Shown here: positions 2,003 through 58,852 of the stretch, piece after piece
Position numbering within the stretch: the stretch's first letter is position 1
Layout of the letters: each line of letters begins with the position of its first letter
Assembly: GCA_051942245.1 (NCBI GenBank)
Contig: JAVECL010000010.1
Location: 62,001-120,855 of the forward strand
Direction of reading: 5' to 3'
DNA from: Trypethelium eluteriae
Taxonomy: Eukaryota
DNA length: 58,855 nt
Made by a program: the position numbers and the translations under genes
The notes under the pieces: model-generated
Databases searched by the model: none
What the model was told of the DNA's origin: nothing
What the model saw: only the letters and a program-made list of their open reading frames with translations

Positions 2003-3060
2003 ATCAATGTGACTTTCCTGACTGGTAGATTGAAGGATTAATGAGGATTTTGGTGTGGGAGACAACCTATACTCAAATGGAAAGGTTACTGACTATAATT
2101 TTCTGTGAGTGAATGCTCTCCGTTTCTCATGCTCTCCTGGGATGAGCTGCGTGTTTACAATGAATGTGGAATTCTAAGAAAATCTCGTCTATTAGATTTC
2201 CAAAAATAATAACAATCCTGTTCTGGCTACTGGTGCGATAATGAACCAAGTCCAGCATTACATTCGCGAGCTTAGCTTTGATAGACCACGGTATGCCTTA
2301 CGCTGTGAAATTCTCGTCTTGTGAAATGGAAAAGACTGAGTGAGGATGGTTGAGAACGCAGAGAGCAAAGAGCCGTGGCATGGATCTAATGATCCAGGGC
2401 TAGCTCCATTACTCTATGATCTGGAATTTACAGTTCTTTCGATTCATCAATTTGAGCGCATTGATACCCATCCCTCCTTTTTCTCATGGTCTCCCTTCAG
2501 GGCTGTTCTGTTCAAATTACCCCCGTCTGAATAGTGCTCAAAGTTCTGTTACCAAAATCTTCTTCTCCAAAAATAGGCGTGACAAAGAACATTCAGAATA
2601 TTGACAGCGGCGGGAGACTTGAAGCTGTCATGAGACTTTTCTGGAGTTGTTTGCCTTCATCACTGGGTCATCAAAAACAGCAGACACGGATAAGATGATG
2701 GAAAACCGCGGCCAAAACATAAAAAAAGACTGCAGAACACCAGACAGCATGACAGACAAATTATATGATAGATACTCTAAGCCGCATAGCGCTACCAGCT
2801 CGAATCAGATAAGTTTGAAGAAAACCATATGTACCACATCGATGTAACCATGTTGGTCGCGCTTGTGCAAGTAGGTATTAACCATGCAGGCACGCGGGTG
2901 CCAAAAAAACTGATACACGAAAATCTCCCCCACCATAGCTCCGCACCTAAATTTCTATGTAACTAGATGCTGCGCACAACGCCTAAATATTCGTAAATTT
3001 TCAGATATCTATGAAGCCATTCAGAGCTATTTTCGTGATGTATGACGTCAAAAAACCACA

Positions 3061-3088
3061 GTGCCTACGTGCCTACGTGCCTACGTGC
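3061..3088. repeat. GTGCCTAC x3.5 tandem repeat inside the transposon, downstream of the transposase stop
   Basis: gtgcctacgtgcctacgtgcctacgtgc read directly. Confidence 0.9.
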
Positions 3089-3101
3089 TTGCCTATCTGT
3101 C

Positions 3102-4232
3102 TCAATATCCTGTCATCTTGCCCTCACCTTGAGTGACTGCATCTAGTCGTTTAGGCATCTCGTCAACCCTAGGATTGATGAACCTAGGTGTAACCCTATC
3201 CCATGCCTCCTCTGCTATCTCCTTCGTGGTGTTGTTGTCCCAATGTGGGTACTTTTTGAGGGCTTGTTTTAGTGGCTGCCAGCAATTCTCAATGATAGAA
3301 AGGTCTGGGGATCCTGCGCAGTTGAAATAGTGCTTCATCTTAGCATCTTCCTTCCATTTCTGCACAGGACATCTTGCTCTATTCCTGCCTTTGTTGCCGT
3401 GACCTGAATCTCCATCTTTTTTAAGTATGAAATGATCACCTTTATCTAGCTATGGCTTCACAATAGGCTTAAGTATCTGCTTTAAATAGACCTCCTTTAA
3501 CATCTTCCCGTTCGTATTACCAGGCACATTATACCAAATCAGGTCTGTTTTGAAGTCCCATCCAACGGCAGCCCACGCGTGAAGGCGTTTGGAGTTAATA
3601 TTTAATGAAGTATCATCCTGTTCTTGGATACAGTCAAAACAGTATTGTTCACCTGGCTTTCTAATGATTCTTAGCTTCCCCTGTGGCCCTACACCCTAGT
3701 GGACCTTATCTGAGAAGCGTACAGGCCTCCAATCCTCTGGATTTGGATAGCGTTTAAGCATGACCTTCGCGTACTCCACACGCCTCTGTGCGAGATCTTT
3801 ATTCACCCAGCCCTTTCTGCATGCTATACACTTGTGGTAGTCCATTCGTCCCATAGCTCTTTGTATTGTACGGCTGGAAACATCAAGGCCACACTCATAA
3901 CCAAGCTGCTTCCACGTGAGGGCCTTCGCAGCGAAGCCTTCGTCCTCCAAAACCCTCTCCATTTCGCGGATCTCTCGTGGAGATATTAAGGGACGTCTGC
4001 CTCTATGTTCATCTTCATCCTGATTGTGGTGTCTACGCGGAGAACTGTCAGGGTGAAGCATCCTCCATCCAGTAGCGTGAGACACGTCAAAATGTCGAAA
4101 TACATCTGCCTTAGTGTGCTGAATATTATGAGCATTTAGATATTCGATAGCGCCTTTGACCTTAGCCTTCGTAGGTGATGTGAAATCAGGTTCCCCTAGA
4201 GCTTGTGTGCGTGCATTCTCTGCGATAGTAAT
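3102..4232 (-). pseudogene. Tc1-like DDE transposase pseudogene
   Basis: One frame with an HTH-like N-terminus, WRPVRFSD(K)VH, ILKKDGDSGHG and SPDLSIIENCW motifs. In-frame TAG stops at 3696-3698 and 3450-3452; no in-frame ATG at the expected start. Confidence 0.92.
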
Positions 4233-4708
4233 TTAGGTGGGGAGCTATGATGTGGTGAAATTTCTATGGTGCGGGGAGATTTTCGTGTATCAGTTTTTTT
4301 GGCACCCGCGTGGCAGGGCAGCCTCCCCTGGGCCGGACGATGGAGAATCTTCGGGACGCTTTCAAGTGTCACTGCAGGTCAAAATCTTGGCAAGATGTTG
4401 TTGAGCTTTGGTAAACAAGACTCCTTCTTTGCCACCGCGTTGCAGCGGAAGCAAATCTTTCCTTCGATCATGATTCCATAAGTGATGTGAAAAGTGTATC
4501 GAACCGGTAATATGTGCTCAAAATGACCGAAAGCCGTCGGACATCAGAGTCCTCGTTTATGTATATATACTCTATACTACTCATGATCCAGAAAGAAACT
4601 GTACTCGACGCCCCAGGCGCCCACGCTGATTATACAGGTTCCCCTCATACCTCGTATCTCTCACGGCCCAGAAGACTTGTCTTTACAGCTTTCATCAACA
4701 TCCCGCAC

Positions 4709-5909
4709 TTACCATGACGAGTGCCCGCCATCCATCCTCAAATCCGCACCGGTCAAGAAAGAGCTCGCGTCGCTCATCAAGAACACCGCAGCCCCACGAT
4801 ATTCTGCAGGTTTGCTCAGTCGGCCCAACATATTCTCCTGCGGCCAGTCACGCCGGCGCTCCGGATACTGCTCAAATAAGGCATCCACCATGTCAGTGAG
4901 AATATATCCCGGCGAGAGCGAGTTGACTCGAATGCTCTGGTGGGTAGGGGATGCGGATGGGCGGGCCGTATTGGCGGGGGAAGGCGGCAAGTTGCCCCAT
5001 TCGGAAGCTAGGTTACGAGCGAGTTGAAGAACAGCGGCTTTGCTGGAGTTGTATGCCGGACATATGAGACCCTATCACACTGCGATCAGCAATCGGGTGG
5101 AGGGGGTGCGAAAAAATTACGGAATAGGGAATACATACCCGGTTGGCGATGGTACCGCTCATGCTGCCGATGAGACAGATGCTGCCGCCCCGGCCGTACT
5201 TGATCATTTGACGGGCGGCTGCCTGAGCAGTCATGAAGACGCCAGTCACATTGATATGCAAGATATTGTCGATTTCCTCGGCGGGGTATTCAATGGCGGG
5301 GATTTCCTGCTGGATACCGGCTGCGGCAATGAGACCATCAAGACGACCGTGTTCATTTCCAATTGCCTCAACGATCTTGTTGAGGTTCGGCACGTCTCGA
5401 ACATCGATTCTGTGGTAGTGGAGAGATGTACCAAGCTCTTTGGCTCGTTTGGCAACTTCATGGAAGGCCGGTGAAGGCTCGGGTAGACGGTCAAGGGCAT
5501 GAACTGGAGGGTGAGATTAGCGACACGCTCATGCTCAAACAGTCAGAATACCAGTGTTCCTACCTGTTGCACCGGCTTCCAGCAACGCCTCTGCTTGGAC
5601 TAAGCCCAACCCTCGAGCAGCTCCAGATACCAGAATCACCTTGTCCTGCAAGCTGAACTCTGGCATGCGGGCGGGTGTGCCCAGGGCGATACTGCCACCA
5701 GATTCTGACATGTCTTTTGTGGTAGTGTGGGCTTTCCTAATTGCTAGATGACTGGCGGAGCTCTTCACCGGTCCACCAGAGATGCAGGGGGGCTCATGTC
5801 TAAAGCTCGTAGGTTTGACTCTGGAGGGTGCCAAAGCTGAGCAGGCGGTTGGTACACGCGTACAACTCCTCAAGGCACCAGATGTACGAGTACGTAAGTA
5901 AGTACTCAT
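4709..5909 (-). CDS. Short-chain dehydrogenase/reductase, D-arabinitol 2-dehydrogenase-like (3 exons)
   Basis: Spliced (introns 5504-5563 and 5072-5138): VSGAARGLG Rossmann motif, GSMSG catalytic Ser, AYNSSK (YxxxK), IRVNSLSPG and C-terminal DGGHSSW. Confidence 0.92.
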
Positions 5910-6922
5910 GATGGCTATAGTGTGTTGGGCTGGAGATAAACTGGGAATCGGGGTTGAACAACAAATATTCAAGAACTGGCTTCTGAGGAAATGTTTGAGA
6001 TTACGATGCTCTGGATCCGGAAGCTGTGATGCCAGGAGCAGGGGCGAAGAGGAGCAGGAAGAGGAGCAGCAAGAGAAGCAGCAAGTTACAATGAAGAAAG
6101 TAAAGAACAGGAGGAAGACAGAATTTTAGAGCGACGGAAACTTGAGAGCTGCTTGCTATGAATTGGTGCGAATCATTGGTTTGACCGAACAACTCACCTT
6201 ACCGCGTCATTATCCGTGACAGCCGTTTGGCACGAGACGCGGAACCTGGGGGGTTCTCACGCAATTCTTGGTTCCAAGCTTCCGGAAAGACCAATTTGGG
6301 CCTTGTATCGGCGCCTGGAGTTTCATGGCAGTCTTAGATGGCGACAAAAGTTCAGGGCGGGGGAATGCGGGGCCTTGAGATGAGCGAGCTCGGATTACCA
6401 GGATAGGCAATCCCCATCCGTCGCCCTGCGATAAGGCAGGGAAACTTGTCGTTGTCTGCCAAGAGCGTGGCAAAGGTAAGTACCTATCTACCTATAAGGT
6501 AAAGTAAAGCACTAGAGGTAGCACAGTCGGATCATGGCCGTGAGCTTTCAAAGCCCGAAGAAGGGGCAATCATGTGACCCGTCTCATGGACGTCACTTTG
6601 AGGTCAGACACGGGAAAGTTTGTTTTCTGCACATTGAAATCTGTGAAGTCCAGGAAATACGGCATATCGTCAGGGTTGGCAGACGGTCTGCTCACCGGTG
6701 GTACGATACGGTGATATAGTATGCGGGCTCGCAGATCTGAGCACGCAAGCTAGCTCCTAACGCCGCGGTCTCGAACCCTTATCGTAGTTGATGGGGATGG
6801 TGATTGTCCTGGAGATATCCAGACAGCGACGTCAAATCGCACACGGGTCTGTTTCGTTCCGATTTTTCTTTTGGGAATATCGCGCATTGCCGAGTCTTCT
6901 TGTTTGTTTCTTTTGATCTGCA

Positions 6923-8793
6923 ATGGAAACTGTAAGATCGACGATTACAGCTGTCACATCTCCCGTCGTAGATTCTCTCCTACCTTCTAGTAGACCCGCA
7001 AAGCCATGGCAAGAAGTTGCGAAAGAAGCACAAGAACATCGAGACCAAACGATAGCGGCTGTGCAACCTGATATCCCTAATGTACCCGACGAACTGCCTC
7101 TGAACGTGACCGCTATTCCAACCCAGCTGCTGACAGCCGAGGAACTCGAGATTACAGGGCAAACGGCAGAGCAACTGCTGCCAAAGCTTGCGAGCGGAAA
7201 ACTTAGTTCTGTCGCCGTGGTTAATGCCTTCTTGCGCCGCGCTGGACTCGCCCAAAAACTTGTCCGCAGTCCTCCCGAATTGCCAGAAAACCCAACTGAC
7301 CTGTTCCTATACAGACAAACTGTATCACGGAGCTGCTTCCTCATCGCGCCCTCTCCCGTGCCGCTTATCTCGACGATTACCTTGCCACTCATGGCCGTCC
7401 TATTGGGCCTCTCCACGGCCTTCCCATCTCCGTCAAGGAGCATATCGGCATCCGCGGACTTGACCTTAACGCAGGCTTCGTCTCCTGCCGTGGCGAGATC
7501 GCCTCGCAAACTGCGCATATTCTGCAAATCCTGCACAATGCCGGCGCGGTCTTTCATGCGCGGACGACGGAACCGCAGACGTTGATGCATCTGGAGACGA
7601 GCAGCAACCTCTATGGCGAGACTGTGAACCCGTTCAATCGGGCGTTGACGTGTGGAGGGAGCTCGGGGGGTGAGGGTGCGCTTCTGGCATTGAAAGGGAG
7701 CTGTTTGGGGATCGGGACGGATATCGGTGGCTCAATCAGGAGTCCGGCAGGCAATAACGGGGTTTATGGGCTGCGGCCGACGAGTTTCAGGTTACCGATT
7801 GATGGCTGGAAGGCAACCATGGCGGGGGCGGAGGCAATTATTCCCGTGATTGGACCTTTGAGTAGGAGTCTAGAGGGCCTTAAGATATTCATGACGGTTA
7901 TCTTAGATGCAAAGCCTTGGCTAAAAGAGCCAAGCCTAGTGCCATTTGGCTGGAGAGAAGGCTTGCAGGTTGGGTGGTTTGGATGGAGGAGCGAGAAAAG
8001 GAGGCTGAAGATTGCGGTGCTATGGGATGACGAGGTCGTGAAACCGCATCCTCCAGTGACAAGGGCTCTGAATGAGGTAGTCGAGAAGCTAAGGCACAAA
8101 GAGGGAATCACCATTGTGGACTGGAAACCGTTCAAACATGACCTAGCTTGGGATGTCGTGGCGTCTCTATACTTCTGCGACGGTGCAGCAGATGAGTCCT
8201 CTTGCATCAATGCGTCCGGAGAGCCATGGCGTCCACTTTCGAACTTCATCATCACAGACAATGCTCATGTGAAAGAGCATACTATCTTTTCTCTCTGGGA
8301 ATGGACCATTAAACGCGAGGAGTACAAATCCAAATATGCTGAGCTTTGGAATCAGACAGCATCAAATTACAAAGCACCACTGGAGAGCGTCAAGGATGAG
8401 GATGCGACTCACAAGCAAACAGAAGAAGTCTATGAAGAGCTCCGAGACATGGTCGACGTCATCCTCTGTCCTGTTGGTCCAGGTGCTGCACCTCCGCTTG
8501 ACTGCGCCAGGTATTGGGGCTATACTTCGCAATGGAATTTGTTGGATTATCCCGCTGTCGTCTTCCCTGCCATTCAGGCTGACCCAGAGATCGACAAGGC
8601 TGACGAGGGGTATATCTCCCGGAATGAGCAGGACGAGTATAACCACAAGCTTTACGAGCCGGAGGAATATCGTGATGCACCTGTCTCGCTCCAATTGGTA
8701 GCAAGGAGATACGAAGATGAGAAGGTCATGGAGGCATTGGAGATAATCAGGGGAACTATCGATTTGCCGTTCTCGAAGGGCTTGTCAGACTGA
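6923..8793 (+). CDS. Amidase signature family enzyme (acetamidase/general amidase-like), 2 exons
   Basis: Intron 7262-7314 joins AQKL to TNCITE. GPLHGLPISVKE, GGSSGGEGA and IGTDIGGSIR provide the Lys-cisSer-Ser triad motifs. Confidence 0.95.
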
Positions 8794-9111
8794 CTTTGAA
8801 AGCGTCCGAACCTGCATCTTGCTGTGCCAAACGCTTCTCTAGTAAAGGGGTGTATGCAGTGAAGCGTTTGTATGTAGTATATTGAACTAGCGCCTAGTCA
8901 TATTGCCCATCAAGGCCTTGAAGGGACGTGTAAAAATGAGTAAAGGAGACAGGTAGCAGCCATCGAGACGTTGGAAATTGCTATGGGCCTAACGATCTCA
9001 CCTGGAGGCGTATACGTAGATGGGACACGTGTTGGGACTCTATAGCAGCTCCCTGGACATCTAGTACGAGCGGTATGCTGTCCGAATCTCCCAAAGCCCT
9101 AATCTTTCTCT

Positions 9112-9147
9112 GCATGCGTAGGCCTGGCATGCGCAGGCCTGGCATGC
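9112..9147. repeat. 15-bp tandem repeat GCATGCG(T/C)AGGCCTG x2.4
   Basis: gcatgcgtaggcctg gcatgcgcaggcctg gcatgc read directly. Confidence 0.85.
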
Positions 9148-9386
9148 TTGCGCGAAACACCCCAATTGCCTACCCCGTCTTCCCGGTAGTTTTGTTAGCC
9201 ATCCCTCCTTCCCGAACGCCTCAGTCGCCTCATTGAAGCACTACTCTCGACTGCACGATCCACCTACGCCTCAATCATGGCGCGACTAATTCACAGCAGC
9301 ATGAAGCAGCATCCGATACTGGACGGATTTCTCAGCGCCTCGAGCATGACAGCTTGCTTGATGATCGTGTTGAGTTTGGGCTACGC

Positions 9387-9421
9387 CATGACGATCCACC
9401 GCATGACGATCCACCGCATGA
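9387..9421. repeat. 15-bp tandem repeat CATGACGATCCACCG x2.3
   Basis: catgacgatccaccg catgacgatccaccg catga read directly. Confidence 0.85.
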
Positions 9422-9943
9422 TTCTCTTTGGCGCTGTGCGGACGAGACCGATGATGTATGAGGTCATTCTTCGCGGAGGAGTGTTGCGCGACCCCTGTCT
9501 GAAGAAGTGAGAGCTGCAACCAGTATAGCGTATCTTGAGCTGCCTCTTAGTTCTCGCGATCCGGACTTCGTTCCATTGGATCCGAGACTGTCGCGACCGT
9601 TCCGCACTTCCGGCTGCGGTAATTATAGCAAGCTTTGCGCCTCTACGCCTCTCCACAGGCTAGGCGTATATCAGCTTCTGAACCAGCAGACTGGTTGTTG
9701 GCTTGTGTGACACTTGACTACCCATGTTGTTAGACATTGCAGCTTCAAGAAAAGACAGTAAGATTGGATCATGATATCTCAAAGCGTATTTTACATCACC
9801 CACAGTAGATTGCAGTCTTTGCTTACTTCGTGTCAAATGGAACTGCTTTCAGCTCATATGATAACATTGGTCTCAATCGAATTGCTTATCGCTTCTGCTC
9901 CATGTCTTTATTCCATTCAACAGGCCAGTTCTCTGCTGTTTCC

Positions 9944-11389
9944 ATGTGTGAATCAAGCAGCATACAGTCTCTTGACGTTTCAGGCCCGGCTTTTGAGCTC
10001 AAGTTGTCCCCTTTTGACGCGCGGATTCCACCTGTGTATTCCAAGAGAGTTTTACTTTTCCCATTGTCAGAAGCAACTCAACAGCACAGGCATAATATCA
10101 TTGACCTACTTCGCGAGGCTGTACAATCGACCGTTGAAGGATTGCCGTTCCTTGCAGGTTCAGTAGTGCCTTTCTCGAAGGGGCGACCATGACTTTACCG
10201 TCTACATGGCCAGGGCGCTGTACGCCTCGAGGTTTGTGACCTTAGCCACGAGCTCGACTACGACAAGTTACGAGAAGCGCAATTTGTGAGCTCATTGCTG
10301 GATTCCGACAAGATTCGTCCAAAGGCAGAACCTCCTGTCGACGTCTGCCGTTTGCGCGCCAATTTTGTTGCCAATGGGCTGATTCTAGTCGTTCCCATCG
10401 CTCACACCGTCTGCGACGGGCGTGGAATCACTGAAGTTCTCAGCGTCTTTGCGAAGCACTTTCGCCATCGTTCGAATATTGAGTTCATCTCAAGTGAAGA
10501 AAATGCACACACCAAACAGTTCTACAAAGCTGACCGCACAAACGTCCTGTCCAGCAATGGTGCCTCTGGCACCATCAAGAACCACATGGCCTGGAAAGCG
10601 CTTCCACGAACGCCTCATCTCAGTAGCAGTAGTTTCGTACCACCAACCGGCATTTGCGCAAACTTCAGAATCAGCAGTGACGCGCTGCGCACACTGAAGC
10701 TACTGGCATTGCCGCCCAAGCCCATCCTCGCCGACTGCGCATCCCCCTCGACCTACATCTTTACACACGACGCCATTTCCGCCCTGCTCTGGTGCAACAT
10801 CATGCGCGCACGGCGTCAGGCGAACATCCTCGACGAAAACGCCATAGTATACGCCATCTTCCCCGTCGACTGTCGTGCCCGACTTGGGCTACCAGCACCA
10901 TACTGCGGTAACGCAGTGTACACGACACGTACTGTGCTTCCTCTCCGCACTCTCACACAGCCCATTGCAATGGACGAACATGAGTCTGATCCTCTACAAA
11001 TCTCAGGCCTCCAAGCTGCCGCTCTTGACATCCGCGCCGCTCTAATACAGGTGACAGGTGATGTCTTCCGCGACTTCCTTGGATTCGTGGAGAAAAATGA
11101 TAGTACGATGGCTATGCATATGGCCGGTTTCGAGGAGTTGGGAAGTTCGAACATGCTGCTGACCAGCTACTTCGGATTTGACCATCATGGACTCGACTTC
11201 GGCGAGGTGCTGGGTGGGCGAATCGAGGCGTTTCGCATTCCGTCACAGGGCTTGCTGCCAGGAATGCAGTTTTTGCTGCCACGTCTTCCTGATGGAGGAT
11301 GCGAGATTGTGATATTTGATTCCAAAGAGGTGGTCGAGGCCTTAGATGCCGATGCGATCTGGAAACAAATGGCAGTGAGGCAAGGTTGA
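9944..11389 (+). pseudogene. CoA-dependent O-acyltransferase (Tri101/BAHD-like transferase family) interrupted by one in-frame TGA
   Basis: ORFs 9830-10192 and 10286-11389 share a frame and are separated only by TGA 10190-10192. Motifs LSPFD, LPFLAG, HTVCDG (HxxxD), DAISALLW, VDCRARL..YCGN and LDFG. Start codon uncertain (9902 or 9944). Confidence 0.85.
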
Positions 11390-45859: not shown

Positions 45860-47325
45860 ATTGGTCCTGATTTCGCGATCTCCAGCAAGAAGGTCAGTGG
45901 AAGAGCGAATACCCACGACAGGCCATTCGAACGATGTACATGTTGGAGAGTTTCGGGTGATAACTTCGGCTGCTGTGACGCTGATCGGGCACTGGTATCG
46001 ACATGCAAGACACTTCGGGAGTAGTGGCGGATAAAGGCAATTAGCGATTCGTTAGTGTATATGTAAACAAATATCTATTCTCAGATGTAATTTACTACAC
46101 TACTCTCAGTACCTAACTGCTTTGCGGGCTACTAACCACCGCTGAATACCAGCACTAGATGGCTGATAGCCACTGGCCCTGTGAATCAAATATAGTAATG
46201 CTCTTCGTATCAGAGATGGCGTTTGAATGCGACTATTTAGGATGCTTTGGGTTCGCTTACCTCTAGTCGTAAGCCACAACTGATTAAAAACAATTTGCCC
46301 GATTATCGTCAACGACATTCTAAGTCTATAACCACGGTCTTTAATCTCAACGACACTTTAAGTAACCAGCACACTACCAATAGCTGTACAGGAAGTTACG
46401 TGTAGGGAGCATTTCTAGAAGTCCATAAAAGGACCTTGTCGACCACACAACCTGCAGCATCTGCAAAACCTCAGAAACCTCAGAACGTGCTCCATGTACA
46501 ACCTCTACGCGTCTACATCGAGTGATAAGTGGGGAAGACTAATTGAGTGTATCAAGGGCCTCTGCCCTCTGCTTTCGCAAATATGCTTCTGAACTTTTCT
46601 GAGTTCTATGCGATAAGCTATATCTATGAAATGCTGAAAAACTTGACTTCGAACAGCACGATAGGATAACACAAGATTTCGAAAGGGATCATCAAAAGAG
46701 AGCGGTATACTCCATCCCTCAGCGACACAACCAAAGAGCATCACTTGTACTATCAAGTTAATCTTGCCCCCAATCGACGCCCTCGCCCTCGCCTCTCTGT
46801 GCGTCAGCTATCACTAATCCTTTTGAATTATCTCATAAGTTAGGCTCCAGATGGCGCAGGATCTAAGGAAATGAGATTGAGATGGGAGAAGGGCGGTTGC
46901 CTAGGAGCGCCAGGCTGGCAGTCGATAGGTTCAGGGAATAAGTTTCACTTGGATACCCGGGATGAACTTGAGTGGAAAGTGTCACTGGTCATGTAAACCA
47001 GCATAATTGAAAGTCATATATGTACAGTAAATGCCTTCAATATAGCATTTTCCGAAGTGGGCTAACCCAGTGTACCTGCATGCAACTCATTCCCTGAGCC
47101 AGGTGGCAGTCACGATAGGCGTACCTGCCACTTTACAAGATGGCCATAGAATCTTGACGCCACTTAGGTACGTCAAATCTCCTTCTACACACTTCTAAAC
47201 TCATCGGAATTGGCGCTTATATCATGTTTGTTTTGCTCTAAAGGTCAAAGTATTGATTTGATATACACGTATAGCTAACAACGATGGAATCTAGATCGAT
47301 TTCAATAATTAACTCTACTCCAATA

Positions 47326-47504
47326 CCTCACGGGGCTGGGGGGTTCCTCAACTGGTAATCAATACAATGTTTGTTCAACCTTACTGTTGTGACCAGGTTG
47401 GCCCAGGTTAAGGCGGTGCTAACATCAACCAACAAGGTCACAACAGTAAAGTCGGAATGACATTGTATTAATTACCAGTTGAGGAATCCCCCAGCCCCGT
47501 GAGG
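47326..47504. mobile_element. MITE / fold-back element, 179 bp, TA-flanked
   Basis: 69-bp inverted arms with 8 mismatches (CCTCACGGGGCTGGGGG...), short spacer, TA at 47324-47325 and 47505-47506, no ORF. Confidence 0.85.
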
Positions 47505-47708
47505 TAGGTAGCTTATGTAAGTCAGCTTCGGAATCACGTAACCATTGGGTACTTTCTTCTTCAGGGTAGGTTAAAGTTTCAGGAGTGCCTAAGCTAGCTT
47601 CGCGAAGTGCTACGGATGTCTACGTAACAAGTTTATCAGCGTCAGGGATCCCTACTTCATGGGCAGACGACAGAAGTCGAGAATTCCACCAACGGTGGGT
47701 TCGCCTCT

Positions 47709-57600: not shown

Positions 57601-58778
57601 GACATGCGCATGACATGCGTCAGACACAACCATTAAATGTCATAACTCGAAGCAAAATCCTACTCTTCCAAGAAATGTTCTTTATAATCTTATGTTTTGA
57701 ACTCATTTTCCACTAGAGAGAGAAATCCAATCTTCAAACCAGGATAGTGAATCTTTGCTCATGATGTTGTCGAGATACCGATATCGCGCATTATTGGCAA
57801 TTTACTTCGAAAAAAATTTCCAAAACAAAACGAACCATATTACGACAGACTATCGACAAGCTTCTACACCTATGACAAACGCTGGAGGAAAGGCGCAAGG
57901 CCCTTGCAGCTCAAAGCAGTCAACTGCTCGTGCGTGACACCCCTCGCCGCTCCATGTGATATACACTTCTCCAAATATGAGGTGAAAGAGATGAAATGGA
58001 ATTGCTTTGGGCGAAGGCTAATGAGGGACCAGGAATCAGCCAAGATTTGCCGGGAACTGCGATGCGTGCAAGGCGAACTCGGGTCTGAGAAAATTGAGTG
58101 CTGATGAGAGTCAGCTCTGGATACAAATCCAGGACAGAAAAGCTCTGAGGACAGCACAGGACATCTGGGGCAGGAGAGCCGCGCAGCAGGCGAGCGAGAT
58201 CAATCAGGCTATCGGGGAAGTAAGGCGCGTTTCAGCAATGAGAAACAAAGGACAGAGGAGACGCAAACAAAACGATTCCGAGGTGAGAATAAAGCGGCAA
58301 GTTGTCGTGGATATGATCATACACAAGGTAGACAACAGCCAGAGGGCCTTGAAGGATCATGAAGAGAGTGTAAAGAAGTCATACCGATCGGTGGTACACA
58401 GTGGACCACAAACCGGCAACTCCCTTTACTTCTGTTTCGATCATAGGCAAGAGTATGTTAATCAAATTGGTACCGAAGTAATTCATTTCATAGGCTTATT
58501 GTGAAGATTCTGACATGTGTGAGATCTTTGACAGTTCCATTCGCTGCAAGAAATTCTCAATCATTGCCAACCTCCGCCAACAATCTATAGTCACGTGTCG
58601 GAGTTTCCTTGCGGTCACAAAATGTCACTACTTCTTGATAGTCAGCTTCCTATCGACCTTGAAACAGGAAATGCCTATCTCAAAAGTCATTCACGTTCCT
58701 CTTGATGTTATTCTTTGATGGTGTAATCCAACCACCTTCGCTAGCGGCTACACCGTTGGCTACCACCACATCTACAAA

Positions 58779-58852
58779 GGATCAATATATTGGACGAACC
58801 AATGGATCACTATATTGGACGAGCCAATGGATCCAAATATTGGCCGCACAAT
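58779..58852. repeat. 25-bp tandem repeat x3 with internal ATTGG..CCAAT dyad
   Basis: ggatcaatatattggacgaaccaat / ggatcactatattggacgagccaat / ggatccaaatattggccgcacaat. Confidence 0.85.

Follow-up and report, generated by a model that had tools for sequence, protein, structure and literature searches.

The duplication of a TA dinucleotide upon insertion serves as the diagnostic for Tc1/mariner transposons and, as laid out in the accessible text of the structural work on Mos1, is explained by a 147-degree bend of the target DNA combined with adenine flipping (PMC5481204). In the accessible part of PMC7325037 IS630/Tc1/mariner (ITm) elements are defined partly by their TA site and the impala subfamily is assigned the catalytic spacing DD37E, and TA is reported in the accessible sections of the fungal surveys PMC3441728, PMC2836289 and PMC4112212, the second of which could not define the target site of TremH. 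A 3-bp TAA duplication is described for Bogo in the accessible portion of PMC9942856. Here, we analyse a 58,855-nt stretch of the Trypethelium eluteriae genome (contig JAVECL010000010.1; the window, at its full length), in which a 1,422-bp element encoding a Tc1-type transposase is flanked by a target site duplication (TSD) of five base pairs. Duplications of 3 bp are also made by TBE, Tc4 and Zator. Together with Bogo, these ITm elements show that the strict 2-bp TA rule can be left, but their TSDs are AT-based and of (nearly) fixed sequence, whereas the lineage considered here duplicates five variable GC-rich bases.

The element occupies positions 2891-4312 of the window and is bounded by perfect terminal inverted repeats (TIRs), placed by an inverted-repeat search at 2891-2930 (plus strand, 3' of the transposase gene) and 4273-4312 (minus strand, on the 5' side), the two arms being 100% complementary over 40 nt. 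A preliminary description of this DNA had noted these repeats with GCAGG directly outside both of them (flank reading, left copy 2886-2890, right copy 4313-4317), the lack of TA in either flank and an inverted match that ends exactly at CAC/GTG, all of which reads the same upon re-examination. The single 5-bp match had been regarded as suggestive of an ITm lineage in fungi in which both stagger and target choice are altered, a proposal that holds over many copies and species: a 5-bp repeat, of differing sequence, is present at another 28 insertion sites, so that the GCAGG match is not due to chance. The feature is real and lineage-wide with respect to the length of the TSD, the absence of a duplicated TA, a palindromic target, the Tc1 fold and a lineage-specific pair of Cys-x-x-Cys (CxxC) motifs, and it very probably reflects a Tc1-type (ITm) lineage of the Pezizomycotina whose own transposase makes a 5-bp strand-transfer stagger.

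Homologs of the window protein number 266, and among those listed every named one belongs to the Pezizomycotina (Pleosporales, Eremomyces, Colletotrichum, Orbilia, Xylaria), with no Fusarium name among them, while a profile search at E 1e-30 or better returned 473 clusters. Eighty loci came from metagenome relatives with a protein identity of 38-62%; 38 of these loci have both ends and flanks and, with the termini set by a TIR profile, represent 31 independent sites. An automatic count found an exact 5-bp repeat at 14 of the 31 sites and an exact 6-bp and an exact 7-bp repeat at one site each, compared with a mean of 0.03 and a maximum of one exact 5-bp repeat for shuffled flank pairs; TA on both sides was seen at 0/31. 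The 5-bp count rises to 17/31 once one terminus is moved by one base in L020, L059 and L084, a repeat with one mismatch is present at 3/31 sites, and three loci outside the 31 (L025, L046, L065) also carry exact 5-bp repeats. Full open reading frame (ORF), TIRs and TSD are kept together in the natural copies L016, L018, L031 and L083. No relative was found on viral contigs, which gave three lone pattern matches, and prokaryotic genomes gave four weak matches (24-33%) without clear TIRs. As further observations, L016 lies between the arms of an inverted repeat of ~44 bp and may thus be nested in a further small element, and a multi-copy member in Pyrenophora tritici-repentis (P0044 cluster), annotated as 'HMG box protein', has as a close tree neighbour L031, which carries a 5-bp TSD.

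In the T. eluteriae assembly itself, a DNA search located the element at four places. Contig C868 begins at the exact TIR start, its first 141 bases are identical to the last 141 of C253, and the outer flanks of the C253 end and the C868 start both read CATAG, which is most simply explained by one insertion split by the assembly with a second, distinct 5-bp TSD; an element end on contig C656 has no assembled partner. [quoted passage not shown] Thirteen copies are two-ended, counting C15 as paired by separate reading and leaving out the truncated MITEs on C806 and C339; an exact 5-bp repeat flanks seven, an exact 6-bp repeat one and a 5-bp repeat with one transition three of them. Among 20,000 shuffled pairings of MITE flanks there was no 5-bp match, and 0/15 automatically paired MITEs were flanked by TA. 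By way of control, both copies of a canonical DD34E Tc1 of the same genome (L194 on C106, L195 on C494) are flanked by TA. The survey of flanks suggested at the outset has yielded no TA-flanked member of the lineage, and 5-bp repeats at the CATAG insertion, the MITEs and the metagenome sites alike. The MITE TIR differs from that of the window element, hence the autonomous partner, which was not found in this assembly, may belong to another subfamily. The MITEs are located on contigs C17, C189, C64, C236, C60, C282, C44, C200, C178, C15, C95 and C586 (loci L131-L142, L172, L193), and the TIRs of the canonical Tc1 (L194, L195) are very imperfect. At L133 (the C15 MITE), L053 and L082 the flanks match over 5-6 bases with 2-3 extra bases beside the TIR on one side, which may be read as longer TSDs with subsequent mutation or repair slips.

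Among the 29 exact sites, 26 distinct 5-mers are represented, which demonstrates that the repeat does not belong to the element. The G+C content of these 5-mers is 66% versus 49% in the flanks, so the initial portrayal of the target as GC-rich stands in composition, but the target is not merely GC-rich, as A or T is found at the centre in 23/29 and TA is favoured in the flanks. Reading outward over 58 half-sites, T is at +2 in 40 and G never, A is at +3 in 34, and TA occupies +2/+3 in 23 compared with a background of 5%, an excess seen in the metagenome and own-genome subsets separately. A set of 51 separate ends gives T at +2 in 29, A at +3 in 29 and TA in 18, with the first five bases approaching CCWGG and no end abutting TA. 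Taken together, the target forms a loose palindrome of the type TA-S-[CCWGG]-S-TA, with TA favoured beside the duplication and not inside it, which is what a symmetric dimer would choose. Repeat-induced point mutation (RIP) as the source of the flanking TA was rejected, as the TA excess is limited to one position.

The transposase gene lies at 3102-4226 on the minus strand, as delineated by ORF, Pfam and alignment, and encodes the FSD, second D and SPDLSIIENCW motifs, in agreement with the ITm assignment first made. By alignment and, for the latter two, profile, the catalytic residues are D175 (FSD; 3708-3710), D273 (3414-3416) and E315 (SPDLSIIE; 3288-3290), and the CxxC motifs are aligned at C135-C138 (3819-3830), between the DNA-binding and catalytic domains, and at C198-C201 (3630-3641), in the loop following the first catalytic Asp, all on the minus strand. 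Pfam DDE_3 and HTH_Tnp_Tc3_2 (PF01498) match the window protein, both under the curated cut-offs. Pfam, hidden Markov model (HMM), Foldseek and VIA-align results agree on a transposase of the RNase H-like DDE/D type with homology to Tc1/mariner, the closest solved relative being the Sleeping Beauty catalytic domain (PDB 5cr4; HMM E 7e-19, Foldseek E 2.7e-10; VIA-align Z 20.6, root mean square deviation (rmsd) 4.4, 214 aligned), followed by SETMAR and Mos1. The full-length VIA-align alignment to Mos1 (3hos) has Z 18.3 and rmsd 13.7 over 321 aligned, and that to Tc3 (1u78) Z 5.9 and rmsd 7.0 over 103 aligned; an N-terminal paired-like helix-turn-helix (HTH) is indicated by the weak PF01498 match together with the structure alignments.

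With the Tc1 family (Sleeping Beauty 5cr4; Mos1 3hos, 5hoo) the lineage shares the fold, the bipartite HTH plus DDE architecture, SPDL, a single ORF between the TIRs, a size of ~1.3-1.5 kb and short TIRs beginning with C. It differs from this family by its variable 5-bp (rarely 6-7) TSD instead of the TA duplication of a 2-bp stagger, the palindromic GC-rich target with flanking TA, the sequence EEDGDSGHG around the second Asp, two CxxC motifs and a catalytic spacing of DD37-38E. The D-to-E spacing is 37 in 43, 38 in 20 and 34 in 2 of 86 scored homologs and 41 in the window copy (DD41E), whereas every one of the 114 canonical relatives that could be scored, out of 120, has 34 or 35; all four Cys of both CxxC motifs are present in 80/97 homologs, and no CxxC occurs in the 120 canonical relatives. 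The lineage descends from and works like Tc1/ITm, and is non-canonical on TA and DD34E. With impala, a subfamily of fungal Tc1, it has in common the fungal host range, the size and the modal DD37E, but impala duplicates TA. A quick maximum-likelihood tree of transposases places 26/26 rows with 5-7-bp TSDs on one side of a branch and 11 canonical fungal Tc1 rows on the other (99% in the Shimodaira-Hasegawa-like approximate likelihood ratio test, SH-aLRT). With FastTree, local support for the core group is 100%, and a DD38-39E sister grade becomes apparent, many members of which have both CxxC motifs. One distant relative in the sister grade (L098:1789-3215, contig C6), with an insertion in its catalytic domain, is present in single copy in the T. 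eluteriae genome; its ends have no TA and show a possible 3-bp repeat (GAG), alternatively read as a 5-bp repeat with uneven ends.

Several observations weigh against this reading. No repeat is present at 9/31 metagenome sites and no duplication in 2/13 two-ended MITEs, and 42/80 metagenome loci, with an end or flank absent, do not enter the TSD count. Six of the nine repeat-less sites are situated ≤352 bases from the end of a contig or locus, where different copies may have been joined, and repeat-less L082 has a six-base match at a two-base offset, but L036 and L078 sit on long contigs and are unexplained. The empty orthologous site that had been proposed as a check was looked for among the collected loci without success, other assemblies merely showing these same insertions, so the duplication is read from the flanks alone. 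In the tree, the TSD is known for only 1/11 canonical control rows and impala is not among the rows. Both CxxC motifs are also carried by many members of the sister grade and may thus predate the 5-bp trait, and both CxxC segments are modelled with low confidence (predicted local distance difference test, pLDDT, ~56-60). The sites without repeat and the shortness of several contigs would fit with the repeats being chance matches or assembly artefacts, yet this is hardly credible given that the shuffle controls for metagenome sites and MITEs contradict chance, that assembly joins destroy matches and do not create them, and that the target palindrome is independent evidence. Transib and RAG have CAC ends and 5-bp GC-rich TSDs, and the lineage resembles them in its 5-bp GC-rich TSD and frequent CAC ends, which makes movement in trans by an unrelated 5-bp-duplicating transposase, Transib-like or other, that recognises CAC-type ends conceivable, if very improbable. 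Of 40 element ends, 21 are CAC, 8 CAA, 6 CTC and 5 other; CAC termini, earlier taken as a Transib hallmark, are indeed the commonest but are not fixed, and since the protein is Tc1-like the likeness to Transib/RAG is superficial, limited to TSD length and GC richness, and convergence at most. The lineage protein appears unrelated to Transib/RAG by sequence and top structural matches, all of which are ITm; Pfam assigned no RAG1/Transib family to the proteins scanned, and no Transib/RAG chain is among the listed structure matches, which is weak evidence and would also fit with a shared RNase H core. Moreover, the 5-bp trait tracks the transposase lineage over many hosts, intact copies included, no TA-flanked member of the lineage was seen, and Transib is absent from fungi according to the accessible text of PMC5751038.

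A 5-bp stagger made by the lineage's own transposase may also be real but already catalogued, for example if Repbase, Dfam or TREP contained Mariner/Tc1 families annotated with a TSD of 5 bp, a possibility to be taken seriously although we consider it rather unlikely. The family is common, and well-studied fungi, among them P. tritici-repentis, have intact members in several copies, the proteins of which, however, are labelled 'HMG box protein'. The preliminary statement that no described family is recognised agrees with the open papers, where no description was found, a scope that takes in neither Repbase, Dfam and TREP nor subscription papers and the bulk of supplements. In their accessible parts, a 2023 paper gives TA as the ITm TSD 'in general' (PMC10045372) and insertion is 'strictly at TA' in PMC5481204, and no 5-bp Tc1 appears in those of PMC5751038, PMC9977792, PMC11544213, PMC5630946, PMC5915480, PMC2817418 and PMC12730594. 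TIR 12-mers occur in no relevant paper of the open literature, and the three family motifs in none of six text supplements of PMC7325037, files which may not hold protein sequences. In the accessible text of PMC7174668, DTT_Birute of Zymoseptoria tritici is a 1,884-bp Tc1/mariner element without a Repbase match at the time; its reported terminal string contains CTCGTG, reminiscent of the CTC/CAC ends of the lineage, and its reported 'TSD' is inverted and ambiguous and may read as TA plus terminus. The sister grade with CxxC motifs includes two proteins of Z. tritici, P0457 and P0464, which may correspond to DTT_Birute.

These data suggest that target DNA is held and cut differently in this lineage, the structural cause of which we infer by comparison. 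The transposase would join the ends of the element to phosphates of the target that are separated by five base pairs (rarely six or seven) instead of two, a position of attack that follows from the flanks, and host gap repair would then produce the 5-bp direct repeat. By analogy with Mos1, a transposase dimer would perform excision and joining. The Mos1 dimer, in the accessible text of PMC5481204, bends the target by 147 degrees and flips both target adenines, which are trapped on V214, with W159, R186, F187 and K190 being used. The lineage may have lost this flip-and-trap step that fixes TA in Mos1 and may engage a longer target that is bent less sharply, with the symmetric flanking TA steps being read or bent. 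The second CxxC motif aligns with the loop after the first catalytic Asp, which in Mos1 carries R186-K190. In Mos1, the linker and this loop meet across subunits. As regards the structural change, the foremost candidate is the pair of CxxC motifs, which probably form a zinc site, a candidate that is tentative and weak in view of the low-confidence segments and of a sister grade that may combine the motifs with a different TSD. More speculative and, as a whole, unlikely would be an ITm family not yet described in which a zinc site of the linker CxxC and the catalytic-loop CxxC, possibly across subunits, resets the geometry to 5 bp, the ancestral taste for TA persisting as two symmetric outer TA steps; if true, nature would here have switched a single protein scaffold between 2-bp and 5-bp integration in a way that can be mapped.

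With respect to applicability, the same fold combined with five variable bases makes the determinants of stagger and target choice testable by comparison and domain swaps, for which intact natural copies exist, and could yield a Sleeping Beauty-like tool free of the TA requirement. Classifiers based on the TSD mislabel these fungal elements and their MITEs.

The window copy itself, to judge from its sequence, is dead and RIP-damaged. On the minus strand, translation of its Tc1-family transposase gene meets in-frame TAG stops at 3696-3698 and 3450-3452, and the start position is ATC versus ATG in the sister copy. Compared with the second full copy (contig C868), 65 sites differ, of which 61 are transitions and 36 in CpA context, a bias expected from fungal RIP. 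Contigs of the Logan collection from one sequencing run hold identical element junctions; this run may be the window's own source and is hence not independent. Between TIR and stop codon, a short tandem of an 8-nt unit in ~3.5 copies was read from the sequence (3062-3090). The element is intergenic, with an ORF without Pfam match on one side and a short-chain dehydrogenase gene on the other, the adjoining genes at 5013-11389 encoding, by Pfam, a short-chain dehydrogenase, an amidase and an acyltransferase-family protein. Elsewhere in the window, a long inverted repeat with 87-nt arms, 84% complementary and spaced by 9 nt, is located at 47324-47506, and a 25-nt unit is present in three tandem copies at the window end (58775-58849).
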